Sequence record: SRR20825006_3046
DNA length: 36,619 nt
Strand: one strand, 5' to 3'
The position numbers were made by a program, and so were the translations under genes. Below, piece by piece: positions 1 to 17,938 of this stretch (positions are counted from its first letter, which is position 1; every line of letters begins with the position of its first letter). The notes below the pieces were generated by a model that was not told the origin of the DNA, did not search any database, and saw nothing but the letters and a program-made list of their open reading frames with translations.

Positions 1-33
1 CATCATAGCAAATGTTCGTGCCTCTCAATGCAT

Positions 34-61
34 AAGGTTGCCGTTTTGGCGGCCTTTTTTT
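34..61 (+). terminator. Rho-independent terminator of an upstream unit outside the window
   Basis: AAGGTTGCC-GTTTT-GGCGGCCTT hairpin followed by a T run. Confidence 0.6.
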
Positions 62-160
62 CATGATAGGCACAAAATTTAAATCTGCTGCGAAATCCGG
101 AAAAACAGCCATTTATCGTGTGGCATTGGCAGTTCTCGAAAAAAAAAACAACAGAAGCGT

Positions 161-186
161 CGCCAGTTTTATCGCCTGCACGCGTG
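161..186 (+). promoter_or_regulatory. Putative ECF sigma promoter of the fliC operon
   Basis: CGCCAGTTTT-N11-GCGTG, same boxes and spacing as 5268-5293; CGT in the downstream box is typical of ECF -10 elements; A-tract upstream. Confidence 0.65.
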
Positions 187-262
187 GATATGGATACCGG
201 CCCGATTTTGGGTCGGTTGGCAGGTATGTCAGTTCCATTCTTCCATATAGGAGATCGCGAAA

Positions 263-1081
263 ATGGCGAGCATTAACACGAATATGTCGGCGACCCTTGC
301 GGTGTCGAACCTCAACAAGACCACAGATGAAATGACTTCCGTTTTGACGGCGATGTCGAGCGGCAAGTCCATCAACTCTGCATCGGACGATGCGGCGGGT
401 CTTGCGGTTTATACTGCGATGTCTGTTGATTATGCGGCATGGGAACAGGCTGGCGATAACGCTGAAGTCGCAACGGCTATTCTTGAAACGGCCGATGGCG
501 GTCTTTCGGAAATCGGTGATATTCTTGAACGTATGTACGAACTGGCATCCGAAGCTTCTTCGGGTTCGGTGACCGATACGGAACGTGCCTATCTTGACAG
601 CGAGTATCAGGAACTGGTTGCGCAGGTTGATTCCATCGTCAACTCGACGACCTATTTCGATACGTCGCTGTTAGACGGCACCTATAACCAGAACTTCACC
701 GTTTCTGCGGACTCGAGCGTTGCAGCAATCGCTGTTGACTTGTCCGCACAGGCCTATGACGCCGCAAGCCTTGGTCTTGCCGGTGATCTGACATCGGCGA
801 CCAACGCGGCAACCGAGCTGACGGCAATCGAAGCGGCGGTTACCACCGTTTCGTCCGGGCGTGCAACGGTCGGTGCACTGATGTCGCGGTTTGATTATGC
901 GTCCGGTAACATCGAAACCGCCCAGACCAACCTTGAAGCCGCAATGAGCGTCTATATGGATGCCGATATCGCGGAACTGAGTGCGGAGCAGACCGAACTT
1001 GGCGTGAAGATGGACTCTGCCATCCAAGCCCTGTCGGTTTCCAACGAAAATCTCGAGAAGCTCTCGCGGTTGCTGAGCTAA
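263..1081 (+). CDS. fliC: Minimal, highly acidic flagellin (272 aa)
   Basis: N-terminal SINTN and SSGKSINSASDDAAGLA, ERMYELA, C-terminal RATVGALMSRF and DADIAE; AGGAG RBS; about 40 D/E vs 9 K/R. Confidence 0.93.
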   Translation: MASINTNMSATLAVSNLNKTTDEMTSVLTAMSSGKSINSASDDAAGLAVYTAMSVDYAAWEQAGDNAEVATAILETADGGLSEIGDILERMYELASEASSGSVTDTERAYLDSEYQELVAQVDSIVNSTTYFDTSLLDGTYNQNFTVSADSSVAAIAVDLSAQAYDAASLGLAGDLTSATNAATELTAIEAAVTTVSSGRATVGALMSRFDYASGNIETAQTNLEAAMSVYMDADIAELSAEQTELGVKMDSAIQALSVSNENLEKLSRLLS

Positions 1082-1087
1082 CTCGTT

Positions 1088-1126
1088 GCGGGACCGCCCG
1101 GTGTTAGAGCCGCCGGGTGGTCCTGT
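1088..1126 (+). promoter_or_regulatory. Strong intercistronic hairpin after fliC (mRNA stabiliser or partial terminator)
   Basis: GCGGGACCGCCCGGTG-7 nt loop-CGCCGGGTGGTCCTGT with no clear U tract. Confidence 0.55.
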
Positions 1127-1159
1127 TGCTTCTGGTATCGCGTGACAAGGGAGGGCTGA

Positions 1160-2848
1160 ATGTCGACAGTGAACTCATCTACATCGTCGAGCTATGTATC
1201 GTCGTCCTACGTTTCAGGTCTGACAGACCTTGATACCGCAGAGCTGGTTGAAGACGCCTATAACGCCAAGATGGAAGTTGCCGACACCATCGAGGCAGAG
1301 GTTGATGAGCTTGAACTTGAAATTGCGGCGTTTGAAGATTTACAGGACCTGCTTGAGGCGCTGGAAGATGCGGCAGAGGCCCTGACCGCCTCGGCCGAGC
1401 TTGACAGTTTGCGCGATGATGTCTGGGTTGGAAAATCGGCCTATCTGTCATCGTCGGATGCCAATACGACCGCATCGGATGTGCTGGGTGTGCTCGTCGA
1501 TGATGAGGCCACTGTTGGCAGTTATACGATTGAAATCAAACAGATGGCGACTGCCCACAGACTGGGCGGAGATACTTATGCCGATGCGTCGTCAGCGGCA
1601 GGCCTCTCAGGTACTCTCAGTCTTGTGGCCGGGGATGATTATACTGCGACGGATATCGAGATATCCGATGACATGTCGCTTGACGATATTGCCGATGCCA
1701 TTAATGACCAGAGTAGTGCAACCGGGGTACGTGCCAGTGTGCTTCAGGTTTCCGATGATGAATATATGCTGGTGCTATCGGCTATTGATACCGGGCAGGA
1801 GATCACCTTTGATACCGATGGAGCAGACACAACGCTGGCTGCGTCTTTGGGGTTTATCAATGACGATGGCGGTTATGCGAACGAGCTGGTGGCAGCTGAT
1901 CAGGCGATTTTCTCTGTCGACGGGGTAGAGGTAACCCGAAGCAGCAATACGGTTGATGACGTGATTGATGGTGTGACGCTTTATCTGTATGCGGAGGAAG
2001 AAGGTACTGAGATTACGCTTGAAATCGATGAGGACGCGAGTTCGGTCTATGACGCGATTGAGGCTTTTGTCGACGCCTATAACGAGTTGCGCAGCTTTGT
2101 TATTACCAATCAATCCTATGAAGCCGGTCAGGGCGCGGATGAGGATGCGGTTTTGTTTGGTGATTCACTTTTAAGCTCGGCTGTTTCATCGGTTTATGAC
2201 GCACTGTCCTTCACCGAAAACAGCGAAACTTATGCGTCCCTATCGTCAATCGGCATTACCTTTGATGAAAGCAACTATCTGGTGATCGATTCCGAGACAC
2301 TTGAAGATGCTCTGGTGTCGAATTTTGACGAGGTTGCCGATCTGTTTTCACTGTCGACCGATACCGGTTCGGACACCCTGCTGGTTTCCGAAGCCGATGG
2401 TACCTATACCGGGACCTTTACCATCGACATTGAGGTTGATGCCGAAGGCAATATCACGTCGGGCAGTGTCGGCGGTGATTCCAGTCTGTTCACCATCAGC
2501 GGCAACAATATCATCGGGGCTGAAGGGTCGGTCTATGAAGGTGTCGAGCTGTATTTTGGCGGGGACAGTTCCGAAAGTGTCGATGTCACGATTTCTAGCG
2601 GCCTTGGCAATGAGATGGTCAAGGCGCTCGACAAATATACCAACAGTTCGGATGGCCTGATTTCCGCCCGTATCGAGCGGTTGGAAGAACAAACCACCAA
2701 TCTTGAGGATGAAATCGAAGATGTGACGACCGCCGCCGAGGCTTATGCCGAAGATCTGACGGAACGCTACTCGGCGCTGGAAACCAAGATGTATCAGCTT
2801 CAGCTGCTGCGCGAACAACTTGAAGCCTTGTGGGGTGATGATGAATAA
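1160..2848 (+). CDS. fliD: Flagellar filament cap protein, highly acidic
   Basis: SGLTDLDTAELV N-terminal motif, TRSSNTVDDVIDGVTL, FVDAYNEL, C-terminal RYSALETKMYQL; directly after fliC. Confidence 0.9.
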   Translation: MSTVNSSTSSSYVSSSYVSGLTDLDTAELVEDAYNAKMEVADTIEAEVDELELEIAAFEDLQDLLEALEDAAEALTASAELDSLRDDVWVGKSAYLSSSDANTTASDVLGVLVDDEATVGSYTIEIKQMATAHRLGGDTYADASSAAGLSGTLSLVAGDDYTATDIEISDDMSLDDIADAINDQSSATGVRASVLQVSDDEYMLVLSAIDTGQEITFDTDGADTTLAASLGFINDDGGYANELVAADQAIFSVDGVEVTRSSNTVDDVIDGVTLYLYAEEEGTEITLEIDEDASSVYDAIEAFVDAYNELRSFVITNQSYEAGQGADEDAVLFGDSLLSSAVSSVYDALSFTENSETYASLSSIGITFDESNYLVIDSETLEDALVSNFDEVADLFSLSTDTGSDTLLVSEADGTYTGTFTIDIEVDAEGNITSGSVGGDSSLFTISGNNIIGAEGSVYEGVELYFGGDSSESVDVTISSGLGNEMVKALDKYTNSSDGLISARIERLEEQTTNLEDEIEDVTTAAEAYAEDLTERYSALETKMYQLQLLREQLEALWGDDE

Positions 2849-3311
2849 GCATTCGCAGACGACTGCACAGCAGGCCTATCGTTTTGCCGGTGCAAGCGCA
2901 CAATACAACAATGCATTGCGCACGACGTCACCGGTTGCGATGATGGTGATCGCCATCACCCGTACGCGCCAGCATCTGCGGGCGGCCAAACAATACCGTG
3001 AAGAAAAGCATTTCGATCTTGAACGTCAGGAAAAGGCAATTGCGGTCAATCGATTGCGAGCATTGCAGGCAGTTGTCTCGCCGAAGTCGGCCCCTGAACT
3101 GTCTCGTGATCTGTATGCGTTCTATGCGCGCATGATCAAACTTCTGGCTCGAAACGGGCGGAAAACACCGCTTGAGGAACGTTACGAAATCGTGGACCGG
3201 AACCTCGAAACACTGGCAAAACAGTGGGAGAGTTTCAAATCGGTAAATTCGCAGGCCGCTGGACCGCAACAGGTTCGTGGAACACGTCATATCGTGGAAC
3301 AGGTGTTGTGA
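2838..3311 (+). CDS. fliS: FliS-like flagellin chaperone, divergent and basic
   Basis: TSPVAMM, ELSRDLYAFY and LETLAKQW match the FliS helix pattern; overlaps the fliD stop; start at ATG 2838 or 2841. Confidence 0.7.
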   Translation: MMNKHSQTTAQQAYRFAGASAQYNNALRTTSPVAMMVIAITRTRQHLRAAKQYREEKHFDLERQEKAIAVNRLRALQAVVSPKSAPELSRDLYAFYARMIKLLARNGRKTPLEERYEIVDRNLETLAKQWESFKSVNSQAAGPQQVRGTRHIVEQVL

Positions 3312-3342
3312 GGGGCAGTTGAGTGTAGGCATCCGTCGCGAA

Positions 3343-3930
3343 ATGACAACGGGATCGCAAGCCTCCGAGGCGGCAAGACAGAATGCCGCCCTGTCGGAAC
3401 TTGCTGATCAGGATCTTGTGGCCCTGATGGTTCGGGGTGACAAGCACGCCTATCGCGTGCTTGTCGAGCGATACTATCGCGGGATTATCGGGATTGCGCG
3501 ACGTATGGGTCTTACAGGCAGTGACGCGGAAGATGCGACGCAGGATGTTTTCGTCCGGGTATGGTTGCATCGGGAAAAATGGCGTCCGGAAGGAGCCAGC
3601 TTCAAAACCTGGCTGTATCGGGTTGCGGTAAACCGGGTGATTGATCTGAAACGCAAACCGCAATTCGTCGATGGCAGTGATCTTGAAAACATGCCTGATG
3701 AGGCGATTTCACCAGTTGAACAGCTGGCACAACATCAGGAATTCAGGCGGCTTCGAACTGCGATCAAGCTGCTGTCGGAGCAACAACAAATTGCCATCAA
3801 TCTGTTTTATGATCGTGAACTGTCCAATCAAGAAGCGGCTGCTATTATGGGGGTTTCCGTCAATGCGATGGAATCATTGTTAAAAAGGGCACGAAAGCGA
3901 CTGCGTGAAGAGTTGAAAGCAATGGGATAG
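3343..3930 (+). CDS. ECF sigma-70 family sigma factor
   Basis: Region 2 DAEDATQDVF and FKTWLYRVAVN; region 4 LSNQEAAAIMGVSVNAMESLLKRAR; start uncertain (ATG 3343 or TTG 3319). Confidence 0.92.
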   Translation: MTTGSQASEAARQNAALSELADQDLVALMVRGDKHAYRVLVERYYRGIIGIARRMGLTGSDAEDATQDVFVRVWLHREKWRPEGASFKTWLYRVAVNRVIDLKRKPQFVDGSDLENMPDEAISPVEQLAQHQEFRRLRTAIKLLSEQQQIAINLFYDRELSNQEAAAIMGVSVNAMESLLKRARKRLREELKAMG

Positions 3931-3989
3931 ATCGTTAACTTCAGTTGCGTTCGAACAGGTAGGTTCGTCCTAGGAAAAAGCGGTGTGCT

Positions 3990-4673
3990 GTGAAGATCGA
4001 GAAATTTGAAGAATTGCTGGATCAGTACGGGTGGGACATTACATCCTGGCCGGAGCCGCTTCGCCATGAGGCCAACATTCTTGTTGCCCGGAATGATGAA
4101 GCAGCTGAATTGCTGAAATCCCTGAAATCTGTTGAAGATTTGCTGGCCGATGATCCCTTGCCGTTGGGCAAACATCGCGCAATTGACGATATTTTTGCGG
4201 TGATTGAGGCAGAAGAAAATGCGGCAGAGCCGCGACGTCATGACGCGAAAAGCGATGCCTTTTCCTTTAACGACGCGCGCCGCGGACGTGGTGCAGAGCT
4301 GCGGGCGGCCGAACATCAGGGTGATTCTGTTCCACAGCGTCAGACTTATCCGTCCGAAAGGACCGCCAATCCGGTTGGTAGCGTCACAGGACCAACTGAC
4401 CCGGCTCTTGCAATATCAGGTATCCGGGTGAAGTCATCGCAGGCATTGTTGCGGTATTCAGCGACCTTTGCTTCTGCCTTCGGGATGGTGCTTTGTGTGA
4501 TGTTCGGTTTTGTGGTTGGCGTTGTATTTACGTCCGAACAGGAAATCCAAACCAACGCCCAAGCAATCGAAATGCCGATGATGCAGGCTCTGGAAAATCA
4601 TGTTTTTGATGAGGCCTCGCAAGGCATGGGAATCGGTTCGAATGGTGCAAACACGCAAACAGGGCGGGAATGA
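3990..4673 (+). CDS. Putative single-pass anti-sigma factor
   Basis: N-terminal FEELLDQYGWDITSWP pattern seen in small genes following alphaproteobacterial ECFs; one TM helix (AFGMVLCVMFGFVVGVVF); directly after the ECF gene. Confidence 0.7.
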   Translation: MKIEKFEELLDQYGWDITSWPEPLRHEANILVARNDEAAELLKSLKSVEDLLADDPLPLGKHRAIDDIFAVIEAEENAAEPRRHDAKSDAFSFNDARRGRGAELRAAEHQGDSVPQRQTYPSERTANPVGSVTGPTDPALAISGIRVKSSQALLRYSATFASAFGMVLCVMFGFVVGVVFTSEQEIQTNAQAIEMPMMQALENHVFDEASQGMGIGSNGANTQTGRE

Positions 4674-5176
4674 TGATTTTAGATGATCGTCGCAAGCCTG
4701 ATGCCACCCGAAGGTTCTTGTGGGCATCGCTTGCTTTGAATCTGTTCCTGATTGGGACAATTGCGGGAAGTATTGCCGCGGGTAGTACGATCCTCCACAG
4801 CTTTTTGGGGGGCTCGCCGCCGATGATTGGTCCGGACAATGGCCCGCCGCCGCCGGTTCGCATGCTTTCAGAAGTACGCGAGAAGCTGAGCCCGGAAGGA
4901 AAGGCCATTTTTGACGCCGAGTTTGCGCCGGTGATGGAAGATTTGATGAAACGTCGTGATGACCTGAAAAAGTTCAGAGAACTGCGCGAGGTTTTGCTGC
5001 GCGACGATGCAACGGATGCCGAAATCCGTGGCGTCTTTGAAAAAATGAAGAACGGTATCGGGGATGATTTTGGTCGTATACTTACGCACATGGCCAATGT
5101 CGCGGTCCAGCTGTCACCCGAAGATCGCGCAGAACTGGCATTGCATCGTCCTGGGCCGCCACCGCCGCCGCAGTAA
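4670..5176 (+). CDS. Membrane-anchored periplasmic heavy-metal-sensor-like protein (Metal_resist / CnrX-ZraP-CpxP-like)
   Basis: WASLALNLFLIG anchor, Pro-rich linker, helical domain with LSPEGK and LSPEDR; ATGA overlap with the anti-sigma gene. Confidence 0.75.
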   Translation: MMILDDRRKPDATRRFLWASLALNLFLIGTIAGSIAAGSTILHSFLGGSPPMIGPDNGPPPPVRMLSEVREKLSPEGKAIFDAEFAPVMEDLMKRRDDLKKFRELREVLLRDDATDAEIRGVFEKMKNGIGDDFGRILTHMANVAVQLSPEDRAELALHRPGPPPPPQ

Positions 5177-5203
5177 CTTTTGCCGGAAACGAGCCTAAGA
5201 CGG

Positions 5204-5230
5204 AAAGGAGTGCAAATGCGCTCCTTTTTT
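5204..5230 (+). terminator. Rho-independent terminator of the fliC-ECF operon
   Basis: AAAGGAGTGCA-AA-TGCGCTCCTTT plus T run. Confidence 0.8.
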
Positions 5231-5267
5231 GTTTTTGGATTTATTTTCTAAAAAAGTGAATTTGCTG

Positions 5268-5293
5268 CGCCAGTTTTTCCGTCCGTCAGCGTG
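5268..5293 (+). promoter_or_regulatory. Putative ECF sigma promoter of the flgD operon
   Basis: CGCCAGTTTT-N11-GCGTG as at 161-186; AT-rich tract upstream. Confidence 0.65.
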
Positions 5294-5338
5294 AAACGAA
5301 CATAAGACCCGTTCAATGTTCGCTTCATGGAGGCGGTG

Positions 5339-6034
5339 ATGAGTTACCTCAGCGGCCTGACATACGATAGCCTGACGGCTTCGACGACCTCGTCGTCAAG
5401 CACATCAACTTCGTCTAGTACGAGCGAGAGCTCTACCTACGAAACCTATATGACGCTGATGCTGACGACGCTTCAGAATCAGGACCCGACCGATCCCGAA
5501 GATGTGTCAGAGATGACCACGCAGCTGGCGACCTTCGAGCAGCTTGAACTGGCTGAAAATAACAATGCATTGCTGTCGGATCTTTCGGAATCGCTTCTGA
5601 CCCTACAGGGGGTGATCGATAACAGCGCCGCGCAGTCCTATCTTGGTACCGATGTTGTCGCAGTCGGGGATACCGCCCCGCTCGAAGATGGCGAGGCCGA
5701 ATGGTATTTTGTCCTTGATGATGATGCCTCGAATGTCAGCATCGAAATCACCGATGAAGATGGAAATGTTGTCTACGAGACGACGGTGACCGGTGCCGAG
5801 GGTGCGAATAATTTCACATGGGACGGGGTGACGGACGGCGGAAGCACGCTGAGCTCGGGGACCTATACCCTTTCGGTCGAAGCGACCGATTCTGACGGAA
5901 ATTCCGTTGATTCTGAAATTCTCATGACCGGTGTGGTGTCGGCAATCGACCTGACCGGCGACGAAGCCGTGCTGTATGTCAACGGGGTCGATATCGCGAT
6001 CTCGGACGTTCAGGGCACGCAAACAGTTTCCTGA
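5339..6034 (+). CDS. flgD: Hook capping protein with no basic residues
   Basis: LQNQDPTDP, QLATFEQLE, FTWDG, SGTYT; GGAGG RBS favours ATG 5339. Confidence 0.92.
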   Translation: MSYLSGLTYDSLTASTTSSSSTSTSSSTSESSTYETYMTLMLTTLQNQDPTDPEDVSEMTTQLATFEQLELAENNNALLSDLSESLLTLQGVIDNSAAQSYLGTDVVAVGDTAPLEDGEAEWYFVLDDDASNVSIEITDEDGNVVYETTVTGAEGANNFTWDGVTDGGSTLSSGTYTLSVEATDSDGNSVDSEILMTGVVSAIDLTGDEAVLYVNGVDIAISDVQGTQTVS

Positions 6035-6051
6035 AGCGAAGGATCAAAGCC

Positions 6052-7347
6052 ATGAGCTTAAGCAGTGCACTGAATTCCGCCGTTTTGGGGCTGAATGCGC
6101 AATCGACGTCGCTTGGTGTGATTTCGGGCAATATCAGTAACAGCGAGACTGTCGGTTACAAGGATAGTTCGACATCCTTCTCGTCGCTGGTGACCACGCC
6201 CGGCTCGACGACGACTGGCTATTCCAATGGTGTGACGACATCGACCCAAACCAATATCAGCTCGCAAGGCCTGATTCAGGCAGATGATACTGCGACCAGT
6301 CTGGCGATATCGGGTGATGGTTTCTTTGTCGTGACCGATGGCAATGGTGACGTTTATTACACGCGTGCCGGTGATTTTGACACTGATGCCGAAGGCAATC
6401 TGGTTAACAGTTCTGGCTATTATCTTATGGGATACGCGCTTGACGATGACGGTAATCCGGCAAGCGGCACCGTTCCGACCAGCACATCGGCCCTGACGAC
6501 GATCAATCTTGAAGATCTGACCGGAACGGCAGAAGCTTCGACCGAAGTTTCGATGGTAGCAAACCTTCCGGCAGATGCGGCAGTTGGCGATACATTTTCC
6601 GTTGATGTCGAAGTGTTTGACAGTCTCGGTACCAGTCATACGGTAACCTATAACTACGAGAAAACGGCCGAGAATGAGTGGGAGCTGACTTATTCTGATC
6701 CGGTTCTGACCTCGGACGGAACGACGGTTACGGGTACGTCCTCGGGTGGTCCATTGACGATTACCTTTGACGGGGACGGCAATCTTTCGGCGATTACGGA
6801 TACCAGCGGCACTGATGTGACCGACAATGCAACTCTGACCATCACCGGCTGGACCACCGGGGCTAATGATAGCTCTATCGTTTCCGATCTTGGAACGGCC
6901 GGCGATGACGACGGCTTGCAGCAATTTGCGTCCGACGAAGAAGATGGCGACATGACGCTGTATTCGGTTGACCAGAACGGTTCGAATTACAGCGAGATCG
7001 CCGAGATATCGATCTCGGACGATGGGGTTGTTTCGGTGACCTATGAAAACGGCGAGAGCGAACCGGTCTATCAGATCGTACTGGCCGATTTTGCCAACGC
7101 GGATGGCCTGACCGCTTATAGCGATACTGTCTACAAGGAAAGCAACACATCGGGCAGCTATGTGCTGAAAACCCCGGGTGATGGCGGAACCGGGACGCTG
7201 GCGGATTATTCGCTGGAAAGTTCCACCGTCGATACTACCAGCCAGTTTTCCAAAATGATCATCGCACAGCAGGCCTATTCGGCGGCGGCACAGGTCGTTT
7301 CAACGACCAGCGATATGTATGACACGCTCATTTCGGCAGTGAACTAA
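6052..7347 (+). CDS. flgE: Flagellar hook protein, highly acidic
   Basis: GNISNSETVGYK, LAISGDGFF, YTRAGDF, FDSLG, LESSTVD and MIIAQQAY. Confidence 0.93.
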   Translation: MSLSSALNSAVLGLNAQSTSLGVISGNISNSETVGYKDSSTSFSSLVTTPGSTTTGYSNGVTTSTQTNISSQGLIQADDTATSLAISGDGFFVVTDGNGDVYYTRAGDFDTDAEGNLVNSSGYYLMGYALDDDGNPASGTVPTSTSALTTINLEDLTGTAEASTEVSMVANLPADAAVGDTFSVDVEVFDSLGTSHTVTYNYEKTAENEWELTYSDPVLTSDGTTVTGTSSGGPLTITFDGDGNLSAITDTSGTDVTDNATLTITGWTTGANDSSIVSDLGTAGDDDGLQQFASDEEDGDMTLYSVDQNGSNYSEIAEISISDDGVVSVTYENGESEPVYQIVLADFANADGLTAYSDTVYKESNTSGSYVLKTPGDGGTGTLADYSLESSTVDTTSQFSKMIIAQQAYSAAAQVVSTTSDMYDTLISAVN

Positions 7348-7373
7348 GTCGTGAAGCAAGGGGATTTCAGGTT

Positions 7374-7796
7374 ATGACAGCAATGGCTTTGGCACTTCCA
7401 AACGATAGCGACGCCGTCACGCAGATCATTGCGCGTCTCGAAGAACTTCTCGATGTCGAATGGCGGATCCTTGAACAGGGTCAGTATGACCTTTTGCCCG
7501 ATATCACGGCGGAAAAGACTCTGCTGGAAGATGCGCTGAAGTCCGAACTGCGTGCTCAGAAACAGGCCGATCCGGAAAATCCGCTTGCTGGCCAGATCAT
7601 CAATTTTGATTTGGTGCGCAGTCTTCGCAATAAGCTTGATCGCAATAATATCCGCCTTATGGCCAAGCGCGATGCCTGCCTGAAACGTATTCGTGCCGGT
7701 TGGGCCGCAACGGCAGGTGATCAGGCAACGTCATATGACCGCGATGGTGATCTGCATGGCAAATCAACGCGCGCCATTCTGAATTTGAAGATGTAA
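7374..7796 (+). CDS. FlgN-like chaperone
   Basis: 140 aa helical protein with LEELLDVE, EKTLL, RNNIRL and SYDRDG; immediately before flgK-flgL. Confidence 0.55.
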   Translation: MTAMALALPNDSDAVTQIIARLEELLDVEWRILEQGQYDLLPDITAEKTLLEDALKSELRAQKQADPENPLAGQIINFDLVRSLRNKLDRNNIRLMAKRDACLKRIRAGWAATAGDQATSYDRDGDLHGKSTRAILNLKM

Positions 7797-7827
7797 CTGC
7801 ACTTTTGACAACTGACAGGTCAGAAAA

Positions 7828-9549
7828 ATGTCGATCCGTGCTGCCCAATCTGCTGCGTTCAGCGCATTGCAATCAAGCCAGACCGGGATTGCTGTATCTT
7901 CGAACAACATCGCGAATGCGTCGGTCGAAGGATACACAACCAAGTCGACCAGTCTGGCCAGCAATATCAGCGGTGGTTCGGCTGTGGGCGTTTCGGTCAC
8001 TTCGGTGGGATCAAGCGTTGACAGTTATCTGATCAAAGCGATTAACGAAGCCGCGTCGGAAAGTGGGTATGCATCCGTGTTTGCCGACCCGCTTGAGATT
8101 GTTTCAAGCAATTTCGGATCGGTTGGAGATGATGACGCAATTTCTACCCTGATCACCGACCTTGAAACATCAATCGCATCCCTTGCTGTCAGTGCAGACA
8201 GCCAGTCGGCCAAGTCGCTTGTTCTGACCGATGCAGAGCAGATTGCAAGCGAGCTTAACAGCCTTTCGGCAAGTGTTCAGGATCAGCGTGCGTCTGCCGA
8301 TCAGTCGATCGAAGATACCGTTGATCAGATCAATTCTTTGTTGAATGAGATTCAGTCCTACAACGAGCAGCTTACCGGAACGGATGGTACAACGCTGGCT
8401 TCCAGCGAGATTGAAGATGCGCGTGCGGTCGCCATCCAGGAACTGTCTGAACTGGTTGATGTGTCCTATTACACCAATTCATCCAACCAGACGCAGATCT
8501 ATATCGGCGGGACGCTTGTGGTTGGTAGTCAGGTGCAGGAACTTGAATATAACGCGGTTGGTACGGTAAATGCCGACACGGTGTTTGGCGAAATCACCGT
8601 GAATGGTAATTCGATCACGGATGATGTCAGCGGTGGCGCGCTGGGAGGACTGATTGAACTTCGTGATGAAACCCTACCTGCCATTCAGGATGAACTTGAT
8701 GCCCTTGCCGTGGCTCTGATGGACAGCGTCAATGCCGTGACCAATCTTGGCACGTCCTATCCCGGCCCGAACGAGCTAACATCAAGCGAGACAACGGCGC
8801 TGACAGATTCCTTTTCCGGAACCGGCACCGTTCGGTTGGTGGCGACGGATGAGGATGGCAATGCGGTTGAAATTCTTGATATCGATCTGACTACGGTGAC
8901 GACGGTTCAAGATCTGGTTGATCAGATCAATGGATCAACAAACATGAGTGCTACGGTAAATGCGGATGGCACTTTAACCATCGCCAGCACGGATGATGAT
9001 TACGGTGTATCGATCATCAATATGGATGCCGAGATTGGTGCGGATGCGCAGGGATTGTCGGATTATTTCGGTCTGAACGACATGTTCACTGGAACCGGTG
9101 CCGATGATATTTCGGTTAATAGCGCGTGGCTGGCCGATTCCAGTCTGGTGCCAACCGGATCGGGATCGGACGACGCGACTCTTGCCGTTGGCGATAGCGT
9201 GATTTCGTCGGGAAGCTCGGATGTGGCCGAGGCATTGGCCAATGTTTTTGATACCAATGTCAGTTTCGATGCGGCCGGGAACCTTGGCAGTACCAAAACG
9301 ACGCTTTCGGATTATGCATCAGAAATACTGTCTGATGTTGCCCAGCAGGCTTCGACTGCCGAAACCAAGGCCAGTGTTGCGAGCACCGCGTTTAGCGATC
9401 TGGTTGAGAGTTTTTCCAATCAATACGGGGTTAATACTGACGAAGAGGCTCTGACATTGGCCAATCTTGAAAGTGCCTACGAAGCGGCCGCAGCGGTCCT
9501 GGAGATCACGCAGTCTCTGATGGACACGTTGCTTGAAGCTGTCCGGTAA
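7828..9549 (+). CDS. flgK: Hook-associated protein 1, highly acidic
   Basis: SNNIANASVEGY, GGALGGLIELRD, GVNTDEE, AYEAAA. Confidence 0.92.
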   Translation: MSIRAAQSAAFSALQSSQTGIAVSSNNIANASVEGYTTKSTSLASNISGGSAVGVSVTSVGSSVDSYLIKAINEAASESGYASVFADPLEIVSSNFGSVGDDDAISTLITDLETSIASLAVSADSQSAKSLVLTDAEQIASELNSLSASVQDQRASADQSIEDTVDQINSLLNEIQSYNEQLTGTDGTTLASSEIEDARAVAIQELSELVDVSYYTNSSNQTQIYIGGTLVVGSQVQELEYNAVGTVNADTVFGEITVNGNSITDDVSGGALGGLIELRDETLPAIQDELDALAVALMDSVNAVTNLGTSYPGPNELTSSETTALTDSFSGTGTVRLVATDEDGNAVEILDIDLTTVTTVQDLVDQINGSTNMSATVNADGTLTIASTDDDYGVSIINMDAEIGADAQGLSDYFGLNDMFTGTGADDISVNSAWLADSSLVPTGSGSDDATLAVGDSVISSGSSDVAEALANVFDTNVSFDAAGNLGSTKTTLSDYASEILSDVAQQASTAETKASVASTAFSDLVESFSNQYGVNTDEEALTLANLESAYEAAAAVLEITQSLMDTLLEAVR

Positions 9550-9561
9550 AGGGTAAAGAAC

Positions 9562-10473
9562 ATGAGAGTTTCGACAGCCGCCATGCAGCAAAATCTGCTG
9601 AATCAGATGCGAAGTGTTCAATCACAACTTACAGATGCAACCAACCAGTCAAGTTCGGGAATGAAAGCGGACTCCTATTCCGGTGTTTCGGATAATTCCT
9701 ATGTCATCAGCACACTAAGCGCGGAAATATCGGAATCGTCTGCCTATGCCGATTTAGCAGAGCAAATTCAAAGCCGGGTCGAAATGTATTATTCGACGCT
9801 GAATGATATGGTCGATCTGATGAGCGATATGCTGGCCGATATTTCGGGCGCACTTAGCACTGGAAGTCCCGATGTTGCCGGGATTAATGAGTCCGCGACG
9901 GCAGCACTTTCCACCATGGAATCTTTGCTTAATACCCAATATGAAGACCGGTATCTGTTTGCCGGGTCGGCCACAAATACGGCACCGGTTTCTGTCGATG
10001 TGGCGGATTATCCGGCCATGACAACGCCCAGTGCAGCCGATACCAGCTATTATTCCGGCAATAGTGATATTGCATCGGCCAAGGTCGCGGATGGCACCAC
10101 CATCGAATATGGCCTTACCGCCGATCAGGAGCCGTTCGAACAGGCATTGCGGGCGTTGAACCTGACGGCATACGCATCAGCCGATCCGATTGATGAAGCC
10201 GCCCTGACCGAGGCCATGACCCTGATCGAGGGCGCGGTCGAGGGAATTGCAGATCTTCAGACCCAGGTCTCTTTGACCCAAGATGAGCTTGAGGCGATTG
10301 TTGACATGCATACCGACTTCCAACTGACCGCCGAGGGTATCGTGACCGACCTTTCCGAAGTCGACCTGGCCGAGGCCATGGTGAATCTTGAAACCCTGTC
10401 AGTACAGCTTGAGGCATCCTATTCGGTCGCCGGTCAAATCGTTGATATGTCGCTGTTTGAATATTTGCGCTGA
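9562..10473 (+). CDS. flgL: Hook-associated protein 3, highly acidic
   Basis: MRVST, SSGMK, LNTQYEDRYLFAG, VDLAEA, LEASY, SLFEYL. Confidence 0.9.
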   Translation: MRVSTAAMQQNLLNQMRSVQSQLTDATNQSSSGMKADSYSGVSDNSYVISTLSAEISESSAYADLAEQIQSRVEMYYSTLNDMVDLMSDMLADISGALSTGSPDVAGINESATAALSTMESLLNTQYEDRYLFAGSATNTAPVSVDVADYPAMTTPSAADTSYYSGNSDIASAKVADGTTIEYGLTADQEPFEQALRALNLTAYASADPIDEAALTEAMTLIEGAVEGIADLQTQVSLTQDELEAIVDMHTDFQLTAEGIVTDLSEVDLAEAMVNLETLSVQLEASYSVAGQIVDMSLFEYLR

Positions 10474-10676
10474 ATTTACCATATCGGATCTTAGTTTGGT
10501 TGCTGGTTGTGACGGTCGATAAAGGCCTCATACCTGCATGACGCTTGCGAAACGCTTGCAGTTATAGCCGAGCGCCATGAGCTGCCACTCAGCCTTGACA
10601 TTTCTGATGCCGCGCACGTGGAAACGGGTGAAGCCGAGGGGGCGGATCTGATAATGTCGAGTACGGGTTCGGTGGT

Positions 10677-10880
10677 CTATTTTCGTTTCCTGTATTCGGT
10701 TTTTGCTGGGGGCGGCTCGATCTTGCGCGTTTCAAGGAGACGATCTGATCCAGTGTCATCCTTGCAATCCTGTGCCGCCCGGCTTGCGCCAAGCAGGATC
10801 GCGGTTGCGCATAGTCCTGTACCCAAAAGGATCAGGACATGACCGATATGGTGCGAAAGGTTTTGAAAACGCATCATCAT
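10677..10880 (-). CDS. Possible small membrane-anchored protein (67 aa)
   Basis: Co-oriented just downstream of the outer-membrane channel gene; hydrophobic segment VLILLGTGLCATAILLGA; no good RBS. Confidence 0.25.
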   Translation of the reverse strand: MMMRFQNLSHHIGHVLILLGTGLCATAILLGASRAAQDCKDDTGSDRLLETRKIEPPPAKTEYRKRK

Positions 10881-10903
10881 GTTTTTGTGTGTGACAGTTG
10901 CTG

Positions 10904-12340
10904 TCAGGCGGCTGTGGTGTCCGGTGCCGGGTTGGTTTGGGCATTGGCAGGTGTCGCATCGCCGCCCAATGCCTGATAGAGCGTGATCAGGTTGGTAATG
11001 CGATCAAGCTGATTTGAAAGAACAGCTTCTTCGGCGGTGCGTCTGGTTTCCTGCGCGTCCAGCCAATCCTGCATGGCGACTGCACCGGACCGGAACCGGG
11101 TTTCGTAAATCCGTTCGGCATTGCGTGCGGCGTCAAGTGCGGCTTCAAGCCGGGCGGCACGGCGATCATATTGTGTGCGGGCTGAAAGCGCGTTTTCAAC
11201 GTCGCTCATGGCTTCGTAAGCCGTTTGGCGGAATTCGGCGATGGCCTGTTCATATTCGGCTTCGGATACCTTGATATTAAGCTGTCCCTCGTTCCAGTTC
11301 AGGAAAGGCAGGGCAAGGCTGGCGCCCAATGTGCCAATCGGGTTTTGCAACAGATTGCGCAACTGGTCGCTGCTGGTGCCCAATTCCCCCGTCAGGGTCA
11401 GGGTCGGTAGCAAACTGGTTTTGACCGAATTCAAATCCGAAACGCTTTCCTTAAGGCGCAATTCAGCCGCCCGTACGTCCGGGCGACGCGACAGCAATTC
11501 CGATGGCAGACCCGCCGCCACATCGGGCAGGGCACCGGACGGTAATGTCATGCGCGGAATTTCAATATCACCCGGTGCGCGGTCAAACAGGATCGATAGC
11601 GCGTTTTTGGTTTCCGTTAGACTTTGTTCGATCTGGGTATAATCGGCCAACTGGCTTTCAAGGTTCTGGCGGGCTTCGAACAGTTCCAGTGACGATGTCG
11701 AACCGGACGCATATTGAACATCGACCAGATCAAGGGTCTGCTGGGCGTAATCGATACTGGCCTGGGCGATATCCAGGCGTTGCTGATAGTAAACCGCCTG
11801 CCAGTAAAGGGTGGCGGTGGTCCCGATCAGCGATAATGCCGTGCTTTCACGATCTTCAAGGGTCGCCAGTGCTTCCCAGCGGGCGGCATCGTAATCATGG
11901 CCAAGCTTGCCCCAAAGGTCGAGCTCGTAACTGATTCCGGCATTGGTGCCAAAGCTTCGCGTACTGCCATTATCCTCGTCCAGATCGCGCGAAACCGATG
12001 CATCTGCTCCACCGGAGAAATCGGGGTAAAGGTCATCTTCGGCAAGGCCCGCGGTCAATTGTGCCTTGCGGACTTTGATGGTGGCCGCCGCCAGGTCGTT
12101 ATTGCGTTCAAGCGCACGGGCGACAAGTTCATCAAGCTGGTCATCGCCGAAATTCTGCCACCAGTTTTGCGAGGCGGTGATGGTTGCTGCGTTGCTGTTG
12201 TCCGATGCGGTGGCGGCTCCGTTCCAGCCGTTTTCCGACGTAATATCCGGACGGGAATAGCGGGTTTCGTTCAGGCTGCTGCACCCTGCAAGTGCCATCA
12301 TCGAAAGGATGGTTCCGGTCTTTAAAATCCGTGTGATCAT
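10904..12340 (-). CDS. Outer-membrane efflux lipoprotein (NodT/OprM/TolC family)
   Basis: Lipobox ALAGC, WWQNFGD, SYELDLWG, PSELLSRRPDV, LYQALGG. Confidence 0.93.
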   Translation of the reverse strand: MITRILKTGTILSMMALAGCSSLNETRYSRPDITSENGWNGAATASDNSNAATITASQNWWQNFGDDQLDELVARALERNNDLAAATIKVRKAQLTAGLAEDDLYPDFSGGADASVSRDLDEDNGSTRSFGTNAGISYELDLWGKLGHDYDAARWEALATLEDRESTALSLIGTTATLYWQAVYYQQRLDIAQASIDYAQQTLDLVDVQYASGSTSSLELFEARQNLESQLADYTQIEQSLTETKNALSILFDRAPGDIEIPRMTLPSGALPDVAAGLPSELLSRRPDVRAAELRLKESVSDLNSVKTSLLPTLTLTGELGTSSDQLRNLLQNPIGTLGASLALPFLNWNEGQLNIKVSEAEYEQAIAEFRQTAYEAMSDVENALSARTQYDRRAARLEAALDAARNAERIYETRFRSGAVAMQDWLDAQETRRTAEEAVLSNQLDRITNLITLYQALGGDATPANAQTNPAPDTTAA

Positions 12341-12354
12341 TTTTGTATTCTCCG

Positions 12355-14337
12355 TCAGTCGCGCGACAGGGCGTCGACCGGATCAAGCCGGGCGGCATTT
12401 CGGGCAGGCAGGAAGCCGAAAGCAATCCCGATCAATGTGGCGCAGGCAAAGGCTGCGACAATCGAGGTCGTCGAATAGACCATCGAAAACGAGCTTCCCA
12501 TCGCGTCAAACAGAACGCCGATGCCAAGGGCAGTCAGAACGCCAAGTGCCCCGCCAAGGATGCAGACCAGAACCGCCTCGATCAGGAATTGGCGCAGAAT
12601 GTCGCTTTGACGTGCGCCGACCGCCATCCGAACCCCGATTTCACCGGTGCGTTCTGTAACCGACACCAGCATGATATTCATAACGCCAATACCGCCAACG
12701 ATCAGGGAAATCACCGCAATTGATGAAATCAGAAGTGTCATGGTGCTGGTGGTTTTTTCGATGGTTTCACGGATGGTGTCGGTATTGATCGTGAAAAAGT
12801 CCTTTACCCCGTGCCGCTGGGTCAGAAGGGTTTCGATGTTCTGTTGGGCCAACGCGGTTTGGACTGCGTCATCAATACGGACGGTGATGCTGCTTAGGTA
12901 ATTCTGGCCGAGAATTCGGGTCAGTGCGGTGGTGTAGGGAACCCAGATATTCAGGCTGTCATTATTGCCAAAAGTGCTGTCCTTTGGCGCGGTGACACCA
13001 ATGATGCGCACCGGCACGGTGCCAAGGAAAATCACCTGCCCCAGCGGGTCTTCGCCGTTCGGGAACAGTTTTTCTCGTGTATTGTCGTCAATGACCGCGT
13101 CCTGACTGCGTTTATCGACGGCTAGGCTGTTAAACCAGATGCCGTCGGCCATTTCATAGCCGCGTACCCGGTAATAATCGGTGCCGACACCGGCAACCGC
13201 GGCATCGACTTCGATATTGCCATATCGCAGGGTGACGGTGCTTGAAACCTTGGGTGTGACGCTGTCGACATAATACTGGGTCGCCAGAATATCGGCATCG
13301 GCGGCGGTTAATGTCCTGATCTGGCTGGCATCGCGATCACCGAAATCCTTGCCGCGATTGACATCAATCGTGTTGGTCGCAATCGAACTGATATCGGCAA
13401 GGATGCGATCCTGCGACCCTTGCCCAAGGGCAACGACCGAAACCACCGATGCGATACCGATAATAATGCCGAGCATGGTTAAAAAGGTCCGCAACCGATG
13501 CGCATTCATGGCCACCAGTGCCATTTTGAATGCTTCGGTAAAGCGATCTATTTCGGCCCGGATACGCGATGCGCGGTGGGTATAGTTTTCAGCTTTTTTG
13601 CTGGCGGCGCGTTCGACAAAGGCTTGCGTCTGGCGTTCATCGCGGATGATTTCGCCGTCGCGGATTTCAATGATGCGTTCGGCATGGGCGGCAACATCAT
13701 GATCATGGGTGACCAGAATGACGGTATGGCCGTCGCGATGCAGGTTCCGCAACAGTTCAAGCGTTTGTGCGCCGCTTTGGCTATCAAGTGCGCCGGTCGG
13801 CTCATCGGCCAAAATGACATCGCCGCCATTCATCAATGCGCGTGCGATACTGACGCGTTGCTGCTGCCCGCCGGAAAGCTGGCTGGGGCGATGATGAATG
13901 CGATCCCCAAGTCCGACACGGGTCAGGATATCCATTGCACGGTCGCGCCGGGTTTCGGCGTCAAAACCGGCATAAATTGACGGCACTTCGACATTGCCAA
14001 GTGCGCTTAGATCCGACAGCAAATGATAGCGTTGAAAGATAAATCCGAAATATTCGCGCCGAAGGGCGGCCAGTTCATCTGGTTCCAGATCGCCGGTCAG
14101 GCGGCCATTAACCCGGTATTCCCCGCCAGTTGGTCGGTCAAGACAACCCAGAATATTCATCAGCGTCGATTTGCCCGATCCGGACGCGCCAATGATCGCA
14201 ACCATTTCGCCGCGTTCAATCGTCAGGTTGACACCCTTTAACACGGCAATGCGATCCTCGCCCGCCGGGTAGTGCCGCCACAGATCGCGGATTTCGATCA
14301 GCGGGGTGTTAACCGTGTTTCTCGCTATCTGGTTCAT
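12355..14337 (-). CDS. macB: MacB-type ABC efflux ATPase/permease
   Basis: [49 protein letters not shown]. Confidence 0.95.
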
Positions 14338-14339
14338 GA

Positions 14340-15524
14340 TCAGAACATCCCCCCCGGGCCGCGACGTATGGACTGGCTGGTTGCGACTGCGCCACTGGTC
14401 GCGCCAATGACAATGTCGTCATTTTCGGAAATGCCACTGATGATCTGGGCGTTGATATTGGTGTTCATGCCAACTGTGACCGGTTTTTCAACCGGGGCGC
14501 CTTCGTCATCAAGAACCCGAACGGTATATTGCCCGTCCTTGTTCGGGCCACTCAGCGCGGCGGACGGTACGATCAGGGCATTTTCCACTTCGTTTAACGT
14601 GATGGTGACTTCGGCCGTCATCCAGACACGCAGGCGGTGGTCCGGATTGGCGATGTCAAACAGGCCATTATAATAAACCGCCTCGTCGTCGGTGTTGTCG
14701 TCGTCATCCTCGATCCCGGTCGGGGCCGGTTCGATGGCGCGAAGCGTGCTTTCATATTGCGTGTCGGGATCGCCCAGAATGGTGAAGCTGACCGGTTGGC
14801 CTTCGCGGACGCGGATGACATCGGCCTCGGATATTTCAGCCTCGACCGTCATGGTATCAAGCTGTGCGAGTTTTATGATGGTCGGGGTGGATTGGGCGGC
14901 GTTGACGGTCTGGCCTTCCTTGACTGGCAGGGCAACAACTGTACCGTCCATGGGGGCCAGGATTTTGGTATATCCAAGATCGATTTCGGCGGTATCAACG
15001 GCGATTTTTGCCTGATCAATTTGCGCATTGAGCGCTGCGATTTCAGACTTGGTCACATTTAGGGTTGCCTCGGCGCTTTCGAAATCTTCCTGAGGCGAGG
15101 CATCAAGCGCACGCATATTTTTCTGCCGCGCATAATCAAGTTCCGCCTGTTTCAGTTCGGCCTGTTTGGCGGCAAGTTGTGCCTTGATGTTGGCAAGGGC
15201 GGCCTCGGCATCGCGCAAATCGTTCTGCTGGGTCGATGGATCGATTTCTGCAATCAGATCTCCTTCCTTGATTTCATCACCGAGATCGACATGCAGTGCC
15301 TTGATCTGCCCTGATACCTGTGCGCCAACACTGACCAGTTTGGAGGCGGTGATGGTGCCACTTGCCAGTACCGTATCGGCAAGATTGCCGATACGGGGTT
15401 TGGCGGTCACATAACTGGTTTTGGCTTCGGACGGGAACAGATAGGCCTGTGCCATCCATCCTGCCGCCAATATGACGATCAGGGCGATGACAAGGTTGCG
15501 TGCGGTCCTGGATGATTTCTTCAT
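14340..15524 (-). CDS. macA: MacA-type periplasmic adaptor
   Basis: [34 protein letters not shown]; start trimmed to MKKSS (15524) ahead of the TM helix. Confidence 0.93.
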
Positions 15525-15640
15525 CGTGCTTTCATGTCCTTGGATGAGACGCGCCCGACGTTGAAAGGCAATTGAGCCGTCGGGCATACCAGACATAGCA
15601 ACCCCTTTGTCAGAACGGGGTGAGGGGGATGAAAATGATC

Positions 15641-15657
15641 TGTAAGGAATGTGTAAA
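15641..15657. promoter_or_regulatory. Tandem direct repeat, likely OmpR/CpxR-family binding site
   Basis: TGTAAG and TGTAAA spaced 11 bp apart in the divergent macA / regulator intergenic region. Confidence 0.55.
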
Positions 15658-15747
15658 GTCTGGCATCCACGCCTTTCGTTAGGCGGTTTAAGCGCTAGAA
15701 TGTCATCATGAACAGGAATTAACCCGCATTTGAAAGACCCGTTGCCC

Positions 15748-17834: not shown

Positions 17835-17938
17835 AGGCTGTCTTATGTTGGTTGGGTATCATACGGAGGAAAGGGCTTGGCAGTAAATAAGTTAGGCTCT
17901 AATGGTGATTGGCGTAGATGAGTATACTTCGGTGCGCG

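Follow-up and report, generated by a model that had tools for sequence, protein, structure and literature searches.

The closest described relative of the locus presented here is the RpoE6/Asf6 flagellar cluster, which was reported, together with its synteny in other alphaproteobacteria, from Azospirillum brasilense Sp7 (Gupta et al., J Bacteriol 2025, PMC12826043). In A. brasilense, the small flagellin of the cassette, FliC2, contributes to the polar flagellum, and a mutant in the anti-sigma factor gene asf6 forms thinner filaments which likely consist almost exclusively of FliC2. The fliC2 promoter, defined by 5′ RACE and deletions, comprises a −35 element CGCCAG and a −10 element CGTGAG separated by 16 nucleotides (nt), and RpoE6 orthologs are more than 50% identical. 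A second line of background concerns composition: the extracellular proteins of Escherichia coli contain fewer arginine and histidine residues, and flagellar proteins are the cheaper the farther they lie from the cytoplasm (Smith and Chapman, mBio 2010, PMC2932507).

We analyzed a stretch of 36,619 nt from sequence record SRR20825006_3046 (hereafter the window), which carries a flagellar cassette of eleven genes. Judged from the names on matches to its hook protein FlgE, the host is a marine Thalassospira. Positions 161–10473 appear to be the Thalassospira version of an accessory flagellar module, the RpoE6/Asf6-type cluster of alphaproteobacteria. The six exported axial proteins of this cassette (flagellin FliC, filament cap FliD, hook cap FlgD, hook protein FlgE and junction proteins FlgK and FlgL) contain 0–3.3% lysine plus arginine (K+R). 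Our confidence is moderate and applies to the reading as a whole, in which the identity of the module, its assembly, the selection on its composition and the cause of that selection are taken together. This type of cluster was already described in 2025 (PMC12826043), and we found no published mention of the basic-residue depletion. Literature searches returned no report of K/R depletion or of a charge effect in flagellar export substrates, and the words 'lysine', 'arginine', 'acidic', 'isoelectric' and 'charge' do not occur in the main text of PMC12826043.

Like the described cluster, the cassette contains flgD, flgE, a gene for a hypothetical protein, flgK, flgL, a fliC with D0/D1 domains only (~28 kDa type), fliD, fliS, an extracytoplasmic function (ECF) sigma factor gene and a downstream anti-sigma gene (a candidate in the window). 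Both sets are without basal-body genes and share the promoter architecture CGCCAG–16 nt–CGTG, and the hypothetical protein listed for Azospirillum sits at the slot which matches the 140-residue hypothetical of the window. The gene order resembles the variant of R. palustris, Bradyrhizobium and M. gryphiswaldense, where fliC-fliD-fliS and further genes are followed by flgD-flgE-hypothetical-flgK-flgL (PMC12826043). However, the sigma gene follows fliS in the window, is penultimate in Azospirillum and comes first in the three other lineages. In contrast to the Azospirillum cluster, the anti-sigma candidate of the window has 227 residues and a membrane helix, an additional gene of the Metal_resist family follows it, and a second copy of the promoter precedes flgD. 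Lastly, at 0–3.3% K/R the exported proteins of the window are much poorer in these residues than those of two Azospirillum loci (L073, L081), which contain 4.9–8.9%.

Basic residues in the six exported proteins

Exact translation counts gave 9 K+R (4 K, 5 R) in the 272 residues of FliC, 15 (6 K, 9 R) in the 562 of FliD, none in the 235 of FlgD, 6 (5 K, 1 R) in the 431 of FlgE, 11 (5 K, 6 R) in the 573 of FlgK and 8 (2 K, 6 R) in the 303 of FlgL. These numbers agree with the hand counts of the initial annotation, as does its estimate of about 40 aspartates and glutamates (D/E) in FliC (exactly 40); FlgD contains 42 D/E. Pooled, the six proteins hold 49 K+R in 2376 residues (2.06%). The five non-exported proteins of the cassette contain 9.3–16.6%, which bears out the earlier statement that neighbouring cytoplasmic proteins are of ordinary composition. 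The remaining open reading frames (ORFs) of the window range from 4.4 to 14.5%, the lowest being membrane proteins, and its periplasmic and outer-membrane proteins lie at 8–10%.

The binomial probability of 49 or fewer K+R in 2376 residues is 3e-59 at the proteome rate of 10.6%, 2e-20 at the 6.0% of the primary flagellar paralogs in the complete Thalassospira genome G009, and 1e-15 at the pooled rate of alphaproteobacterial axial proteins (5.3%). Even at this last rate, the 0/235 of FlgD has a binomial probability of 3e-6. The depletion is as marked in the first and last 45 residues of the exported proteins as in their middle parts, and it is therefore not confined to surfaces which are exposed in the assembled polymer.

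The cassette composition lies at the far low end of a trait seen throughout the family, the low K+R of axial proteins. A scan of genome contigs with a FlgE alignment yielded 80 alphaproteobacterial loci, 73 of which gave classified axial ORFs. The median K+R contents in these 73 loci were 7.3% (FliC), 4.0% (FliD), 4.8% (FlgD), 4.2% (FlgE, a class which includes a few rod-like ORFs), 5.6% (FlgK) and 5.6% (FlgL); 806 other ORFs of the surveyed loci had a median of 11.9%. After length filtering, the FlgE median was 3.2% in 8 ECF-linked cassettes versus 4.3% in 52 other loci, and all 120 FlgE homologs listed fell between 1.3 and 5.0%. In a sample of Pseudomonadota (151 genomes drawn, 114 with a match, 30 loci taken), the median was 4.9% for 23 FlgE proteins (minimum 2.0) and 5.9% for 22 FlgD proteins (minimum 2.4). 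The axial proteins of E. coli K-12 contain 3.0–8.2%, the primary paralogs of Thalassospira 4.4–7.5% in G009 and 5.5–9.1% in G001, the genome nearest to the window. Roughly, axial proteins generally hold about a quarter to three quarters of the proteome K+R.

No window value exceeds the corresponding minimum among 11 other ECF-linked cassettes. Of the 607 ORFs of at least 150 residues in 800 kb sampled from G009, the poorest contains 3.0% K+R (5th percentile 5.7%, median 10.6%), and five of the six axial proteins of the cassette lie below this value. The initial annotation had attributed the depletion to selection on this appendage. The depletion is indeed confined to the six exported subunits and behaves like a selected trait, but K/R-poor axial proteins occur everywhere examined, and in this respect the appendage is not peculiar. 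The same annotation would have abandoned its interpretation if the primary paralogs and other secreted proteins were equally acidic. They are not: the primary paralogs of G009, at 4.4–7.5% K+R, carry about half the net negative charge per residue, and the periplasmic and outer-membrane proteins of the window contain the 8–10% K+R given above.

The only comparably low ORFs in the G009 sample are membrane proteins, two signal-peptide proteins and one RTX-like exoprotein. The signal-peptide ORFs (136693–137577 and 139091–140077, + strand) are rich in Gly, Ala and Ser, with 3.0–3.1% K+R and low D/E. The RTX-like ORF (G009:C1:3093341-3094627, − strand; 428 residues, 7 GGxGxD motifs, 4.0% K+R, 19.9% D/E) is the sole non-flagellar soluble ORF of the sample which approaches the composition of the cassette.

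These counts are maintained in every one of the 16 Thalassospira cassettes, whose FlgE proteins are 79–97% identical to that of the window. FlgE contains 6–8 K/R across these cassettes, FlgK 10–14 and FlgL 8–12; FlgD has 0–1 in 14 of 15 cassettes, the fifteenth being an over-extended ORF of 270 residues with 4. In the same cassettes FliS, the sigma and anti-sigma factors and the hypothetical protein contain K/R at ordinary levels. We compared ortholog variants at window sites without K/R with the expectation from one-nucleotide neighbours. Axial proteins showed 80 K/R gains versus 228.8 expected (2300 variants, ratio 0.35), and the five non-axial cassette proteins 165 versus 195.4 (1621 variants, ratio 0.84). 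Together with the counts kept in 16 cassettes, these ratios argue for selection, and they point to purifying selection against gaining basic residues as the force which would keep the depletion in this lineage. The ratio of nonsynonymous to synonymous divergence (dN/dS) is 0.07–0.22, values which are rough because dS is saturated (>1).

The basic residues that remain are mostly found at sites which are basic in most homologs. In FlgE, K37, R105 and K204 are retained, and these positions are basic in 93–100% of 57 homologs; further examples are R154, R199 and R279 in FlgK and K37, K92, R134, R260 and R311 in FliD. The motifs quoted by the initial annotation are present (SSGKSINSASDDAAG in FliC, AQQAY in FlgE, GYTTK in FlgK). 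FliC has lost three sites that are K/R in 24 of 24 homologs; in the window, site 30 is A, site 36 is S and site 92 is Y. Relative to solved flagellins, SSGLRINSAKDD reads SSGKSINSASDD and QRMRDL reads ERMYEL. The FlgE motif needs a qualification: AQQAY is invariant in 12 aligned clade members and therefore characterizes the clade, so that this organism itself has lost nothing here.

FlgD has no tryptic site and the other five proteins have 6–15, with fragments of up to 177 residues. The earlier prediction that such proteins would be nearly invisible to tryptic proteomics is correct for FlgD, which yields no usable peptide, and too strong for the other five, which give 3–8 peptides of 7–35 residues (16–29% coverage). 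Trypsin-based proteomics would therefore under-report this appendage.

These observations add a physical property to the recently described RpoE6 cassette. A complete self-assembling exported flagellar set with 0–3% basic residues, and none in FlgD, marks a natural lower limit which bears on the requirements of export through the flagellar channel and of axial polymerisation.

The cassette and the resident basal body

Two gene groups follow each other, fliC-fliD-fliS-ECF sigma-anti-sigma-Metal_resist and then flgD-flgE-hypothetical-flgK-flgL. Families were assigned with Pfam and NCBIfam profiles at curated cut-offs, and all six axial proteins exceed the Pfam cut-offs. The features are as follows.

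34..56, + strand: terminator-like hairpin (10 pairs) with T-run, 5′ of the cassette; consensus scan
161..186, + strand: predicted RpoE6-type promoter P1, CGCCAG, 16 nt, CGTG(GA), 77 nt 5′ of the fliC start
263..1081, + strand: fliC, small flagellin of 272 residues, D0/D1 only; Flagellin_N 4.5e-33, Flagellin_C 1e-12
1160..2848, + strand: fliD, filament cap, 562 residues; FliD_C 1.6e-48 and FliD_N (Pfam)
2820..3311, + strand: fliS-like chaperone gene, 163 residues; Pfam FliS 1.1e-07, 32.6 bits versus a cut-off of 26.7
3277..3930, + strand: RpoE6-like ECF sigma factor gene; Sigma70_r2 and r4_2 (Pfam), TIGR02937 112 bits
3990..4673, + strand: candidate gene for a membrane-anchored anti-sigma factor of 227 residues in the Asf6 position, directly 3′ of the sigma gene
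4670..5176, + strand: periplasmic Metal_resist-family protein (CpxP/Spy/ZraP-like), 168 residues, N-terminal membrane helix; PF13801
5202..5229, + strand: terminator-like hairpin (12 pairs) with T-run, which would end operon 1 and separate the two units; consensus scan
5268..5293, + strand: predicted RpoE6-type promoter P2, CGCCAG, 16 nt, CGTG(AA), 34 nt 5′ of the flgD start
5327..6034, + strand: flgD, hook cap, 235 residues; Pfam FlgD and FlgD_ig
6052..7347, + strand: flgE, hook, 431 residues; NF004242 453 bits versus a cut-off of 365, and Pfam matches
7374..7796, + strand: hypothetical cytoplasmic protein of 140 residues with 14.3% K+R, 'hp2'/FlgN slot by position
7828..9549, + strand: flgK, hook-filament junction 1, 573 residues; TIGR02492 250 bits versus a cut-off of 171, FlgK_D1 5.8e-42
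9562..10473, + strand: flgL, hook-filament junction 2, 303 residues; NF006489 231 bits versus a cut-off of 217, Flagellin_C and Flagellin_N

The Pfam domains of FliC are Flagellin_N (residues 4–140) and Flagellin_C (186–270) with nothing else, and its closest solved relatives are flagellins of 270–272 residues. The fliS ORF and the end of fliD overlap, which leaves the fliS start codon uncertain, and the sigma gene starts at 3277 or at ~3319, its product having 203 residues in most orthologs. The 227-residue protein matched no Pfam or NCBIfam family. It contains a single hydrophobic helix near residue 170 and weakly resembles, by phmmer, the ORFs which follow the sigma genes of a marine Rhodospirillales metagenome-assembled genome (MAG; L056, 1.1e-10) and of Azospirillum canadense (L081, 2.7e-6); from this and its position it is a probable membrane-anchored anti-sigma factor. 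The match of the next protein to PF13801 is marginal, with 29.9 bits versus a cut-off of 29.2, and the L056 counterpart reaches 55.5 bits. The 140-residue hypothetical protein matched no Pfam or NCBIfam family. The hairpin at 34..56 probably ends an upstream transcription unit.

The pattern CGCCAG-N16-CGTG occurs twice in the window, both times on the + strand (161–186 and 5268–5293), where 0.09 matches are expected; the two copies directly precede fliC and flgD and read CGTGGA at P1 and CGTGAA at P2. The P1 blocks are kept, with a variable spacer, in G009 and in locus L054. The P2 blocks stand 5′ of flgD in every Thalassospira cassette scanned, namely that of the window and 14 others (L030-L041, L043, L054), and here too the spacer varies; the block of L041 reads CGCCAGTTTC. 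The motif is also present in the Azospirillum locus L073, and a sigma-70 promoter scan gave no match on the + strand of the cassette. The window sigma factor is 40% identical over 212 residues (E 6e-43) to that of the syntenic cluster of Azospirillum sp. A26 (L073), and since published RpoE6 orthologs share more than 50% identity, it is more distant than these.

A membrane-bound anti-sigma factor, accompanied by the periplasmic Metal_resist-family protein, would hold the ECF sigma factor. Once released, the latter would drive the two promoters and with them operon 1 (fliC to the Metal_resist gene) and operon 2 (flgD to flgL). Marine RNA libraries from three studies contain contigs which match parts of fliD, the regulatory genes, flgD, flgE, flgK and flgL with at least 95% identity, which fits transcription in the sea; in RNA runs X1, X3, X5 and X7, stretches of the cassette are without contig cover.

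The cassette FlgE was found in 16 of 37 Thalassospira species genomes at 79–97% identity, and all 16 carriers also hold a long primary FlgE with an open frame of 575–597 residues. The complete carriers G009 and G005 have one FlhA (export gate) and one FliF (MS ring) each, and their FlgE/F/G family consists of the cassette FlgE and the primary FlgE, FlgF and FlgG, with no others. With a single FlhA and a single FliF, the cassette in these carriers must use the resident export apparatus and rod. The six exported proteins would leave the cell by the type III apparatus of the resident flagellum and form, on its rod, an alternative outer structure of hook cap, hook, junction, filament and filament cap. 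Beyond adding a minor flagellin, the Thalassospira module might therewith replace the whole external structure by one of very different surface charge.

A dispersed second flagellar system was rejected for Thalassospira on the grounds of one FlhA, one FliF and no second rod set in the two complete carriers. Such a system is also unlikely in Bradyrhizobium sp. ma5 and Caulobacter sp. D5, which have one rod set each; both genomes contain a second FHIPEP match. The genome of Brevundimonas intermedia (G188, locus L055) encodes three FlgE paralogs: a primary type with an open frame of 631 residues, a second (491 residues) which adjoins a second FlhA and a second rod set, and the ECF-linked cassette FlgE as the third. 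One genome can therefore hold two full systems and an orphan cassette.

Explanations for the extra depletion

Compared with the primary paralogs, the cassette axial proteins contain 2.1 versus 6.0% K+R, 16.9 versus 12.9% D+E, 8.0 versus 12.0% N+Q and 24.0 versus 18.5% S+T, and their net charge per residue is −0.11 to −0.19 versus −0.06 to −0.08. Low K+R is common to nearly all ECF-linked cassettes and to the nearest and marine FlgE relatives, whatever the organism. D+E amounts to 5–10% in Bradyrhizobium, Tardiphaga and Caulobacterales, versus 12–16% in Thalassospira, Roseibium, Kiloniella, Tistlia and a coral-associated MAG. Furthermore, in three soil or groundwater MAGs (L105, L109, L122) FlgD, FlgE, FlgK and FlgL contain 0.6–2.5% K+R together with 5–7% D/E; they are an independent case of nearly K/R-free axial proteins without acidification. 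Since equally K/R-poor lineages lack the excess of acidic residues, K/R loss alone implies no polyanion in need of shielding. The records of these three loci are titled uncultured proteobacterium, Proteobacteria bacterium and Beijerinckiaceae; each has FlgE at 10001–11250 and the Rhizobiales-type order flgE-flgK-flgL-flgD. Independent extremes in acid-rich marine and acid-poor soil lineages, within a family that is poor in K/R throughout, make this a comparative question across genomes. In the cassette, the lost K/R positions are occupied to ~58% by the neutral S, A, T, Q or N and to 21% by D or E; relative to background shares, Q is enriched 2.9x, E 1.7x, N 1.4x and S 1.3x.

The reading we favor, and which we consider somewhat more probable than its negation, joins a known module, a resident basal body and a selected depletion with an intensified general pressure. 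Exported, non-recyclable axial subunits would generally be under pressure for a cheap composition and for travel as an unfolded chain, and in the lineage of this cassette these pressures would have become stronger. Together with the proteome of its marine host, which is rich in acidic residues, they would have led to the net charges given above. At seawater ionic strength ordinary counter-ions would screen the charge of the subunits, and no specific metal requirement need therefore be assumed.

Several points weigh against this reading. The primary system and the single export gate of the window organism are deduced from relatives, and the assembly of the cassette proteins in Thalassospira is a prediction from gene content. 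As a test of selection, the count of K/R gains is crude, since it draws on non-independent orthologs, includes some over-extended ORF starts and takes no account of transition bias or codon usage in its one-nucleotide-neighbour expectation. The sigma comparison used the homolog of Azospirillum sp. A26 and not RpoE6 of Sp7, and its 40% identity falls below the more than 50% published for RpoE6 orthologs. DNA carry-over is possible in the RNA libraries. The proposed cause of the extra depletion is tentative; nitrogen sparing, too, would predict a part of the composition, and the Metal_resist gene in the operon and an EF-hand gene in L056 keep a link to cations possible.

Three compositional patterns deserve comparison. 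The first is the economy of extracellular proteins, in which costly residues, Arg and His among them, are scarcer in exported flagellar proteins than in cytoplasmic ones (PMC2932507). In line with it, the cassette axial proteins cost 19.7 ~P (high-energy phosphate bonds) per residue to synthesize, versus 21.7–22.5 for cytoplasmic proteins and 20.4 for the primary paralogs. The underlying cost table is reportedly that of Akashi and Gojobori. However, the saving relative to the primary paralogs is small, Tyr rises in the cassette, and Lys is not among the depleted residues listed for E. coli in the cited passage of PMC2932507. Economy alone does not predict the drop of K+R from ~5% to 2%, or to zero in FlgD.

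The second pattern is that of halophile-type acidic proteins. The cassette shares with it a D+E of 16.9% and a Lys content of 0.9%; relative to primary paralogs and homologs, Ser and Val are raised, Phe and Ile reduced and Thr unchanged. In the classical halophile signature, Lys is lowered and Arg is retained. Cassette Arg (1.1%), in contrast, is 68% below the primary paralogs, the same fall as for Lys, and the other exported proteins of the host in the window keep their 8–10% K+R. Thirdly, RTX exoproteins offer an analogy only: they are very acidic with few basic residues, leave the cell unfolded and acquire their fold outside, but the export route and the fold of the cassette proteins differ, and the six exported proteins contain no GGxGxD and no DxDxDG motif.

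Cation-gated assembly sharpens the inference of the initial annotation that polymerisation may need multivalent cations, and is, in our estimate, unlikely. The subunits would be self-repelling polyanions which stay unfolded in the cytoplasm and need Ca2+/Mg2+ or another multivalent cation outside the cell for folding and polymerisation, as RTX exoproteins do. Their net charges, from −31 (FliC) to −109 (FliD, with 124 D/E versus 15 K+R), are per residue about twice those of the primary paralogs, and the RTX-like exoprotein of G009 is similar in composition. However, the D+E of the cassette is only moderately above that of ordinary G009 proteins (median 11.9%, 95th percentile 15.7%), and equally K/R-poor axial proteins with 5–7% D/E exist in L105, L109, L122 and Bradyrhizobium cassettes. 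The lack of GGxGxD and DxDxDG motifs mentioned above likewise speaks against it, as does the general physical-chemistry argument that seawater ionic strength screens charge without specific ions.

The chaperone is a further argument for cation gating. FliS of the window has 27 K+R versus 14 D/E (net +13, isoelectric point 10.3), and all 13 Thalassospira orthologs compared carry net charges between +9 and +15, versus −5 in E. coli FliS; in the primary FliS of G009, D/E outnumber K+R. From sequence, the charge of the cassette FliS looks complementary to the very acidic C-terminus of FliC. In addition, the Metal_resist-family gene would be co-transcribed with the sigma and anti-sigma genes in the predicted operon, but its family match is marginal. 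An EF-hand protein is encoded beside the same module in L056 (3332-3907, − strand, 191 residues), where it adjoins the Metal_resist, anti-sigma and ECF sigma genes; it was seen in this one locus only and is a possible link to calcium.

Nitrogen sparing is likewise improbable. It holds that exported and unrecovered subunits are stripped of nitrogen-rich side chains in a nitrogen-poor ocean. Side-chain nitrogen per residue is indeed halved, from 0.261 in the primary paralogs to 0.129 (alphaproteobacterial homologs 0.232, cytoplasmic proteins ~0.45), K, R, H, N and Q all lie below the primary paralogs, and economy of extracellular proteins is an established pattern (PMC2932507). Other details speak against it, however. 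K and R drop equally (65% and 68%) with no shift from R to K, though the R side chain carries three nitrogens and that of K one, and the conserved basic sites which were kept are mostly R. The nitrogen-carrying Q is the most enriched replacement (N is enriched as well), and the costly Tyr rises from 2.2 to 3.8%. The fall of N and Q is predicted equally by acidification from N to D and from Q to E. Lastly, the cassettes of Bradyrhizobium, a nitrogen-fixing genus, are also K/R-poor.

A more elaborate form of cation gating, which we regard as speculative and doubtful, pictures a 'seawater' outer flagellum. Here a periplasmic signal, passed via the anti-sigma and Metal_resist proteins, would re-tool the single motor with a hook and filament of polyanionic subunits; charge repulsion and the basic FliS would keep these subunits unfolded and fit for export, and the Ca2+/Mg2+ of seawater would trigger their folding and polymerisation at the tip. 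If true, this would be an RTX-like, cation-gated assembly in a flagellum, and the filament might be a cation-binding fibre.

Protease evasion, by which K/R loss would deprive trypsin-like or dibasic-specific proteases of their cleavage sites, be they from grazers, from competitors or from the organism's own secretome, seems very improbable. The scarcity of tryptic sites described above agrees with it, and the depletion is specific to parts which end outside the cell. However, the terminal D0-type segments, which are buried in the polymer, are depleted as strongly as the middle domains, FlgD is a transient cap and not a long-lived exposed structure, and family scans of the window and of L056 linked no protease gene to the cassette.

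That the composition has no adaptive meaning, being a quirk of a donor lineage which was horizontally transferred and now drifts, is the least credible account: the cassette is patchy (16 of 37 genomes of the genus), absent from the nearest genome despite 95–98% identical flanking DNA and set in different contexts in the window and G009, and its closest FlgE relatives outside the genus are already at 1.4–2.8% K+R, but K/R gains are under-represented only in the axial proteins (0.35 versus 0.84), the counts are stable across FlgE identities of 79–97% with dS >1, and FliC sites 30, 36 and 92, invariably basic in 24 homologs, were lost beyond the clade baseline.

Genomic setting and neighbouring genes

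G001 is 95–98% identical to the window over positions 18268–36619, is without the window stretch from 1 to ~17,940, and has no close cassette FlgE. Window 1–17940 is a strain-variable block which comprises the cassette, efflux genes and two-component genes; at the junction, G001 holds ~10 kb of other DNA (C4, ~27424–37715). Positions 1–37 match short stretches on two other G001 contigs at 92–95% identity and may represent a small dispersed repeat at the edge of the island.

Behind flgL, window 10904–17834 encodes on the − strand a TolC-like outer-membrane factor, a MacB-type ABC transporter and an HlyD-type adaptor; the + strand carries genes for a response regulator and a histidine kinase. 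In L056, MacB and HlyD genes (16804–20065) are located a few kb away from the cassette. Non-flagellar ORFs flank the cassette of the complete genome G009, as judged from the ORF list without a family scan. These neighbours differ from those of the window: the upstream ORFs are unlike the window flanks, and no MacAB genes follow downstream.

The ECF-sigma-linked gene set also occurs in Bradyrhizobium, Tardiphaga, Brevundimonas, other Caulobacterales, Pleomorphomonas, Azospirillum and the marine Rhodospirillales MAG, and in Bradyrhizobium, Brevundimonas and this MAG it is flanked by non-flagellar genes. A text search of a paper on the dual flagella of Bradyrhizobium (PMC6406911) gave no mention of an ECF-linked third cluster.

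A nucleotide-composition artefact was rejected as the source of the low K+R, as the cassette has a G+C content of 51–53% like the rest of the window and an overlapping ORF at 63–335 contains 25.6% K+R. This 90-residue ORF (+ strand) overlaps P1 and the fliC start in a different frame and is most likely spurious. Among the primary flagellar genes of the genus, the cluster of G001 (G001:C1:427000-435000, L143) contains five tandem flagellin genes for products of 278–309 residues with 7.2–9.1% K+R, and genome G011 has two adjacent long FlgE genes.

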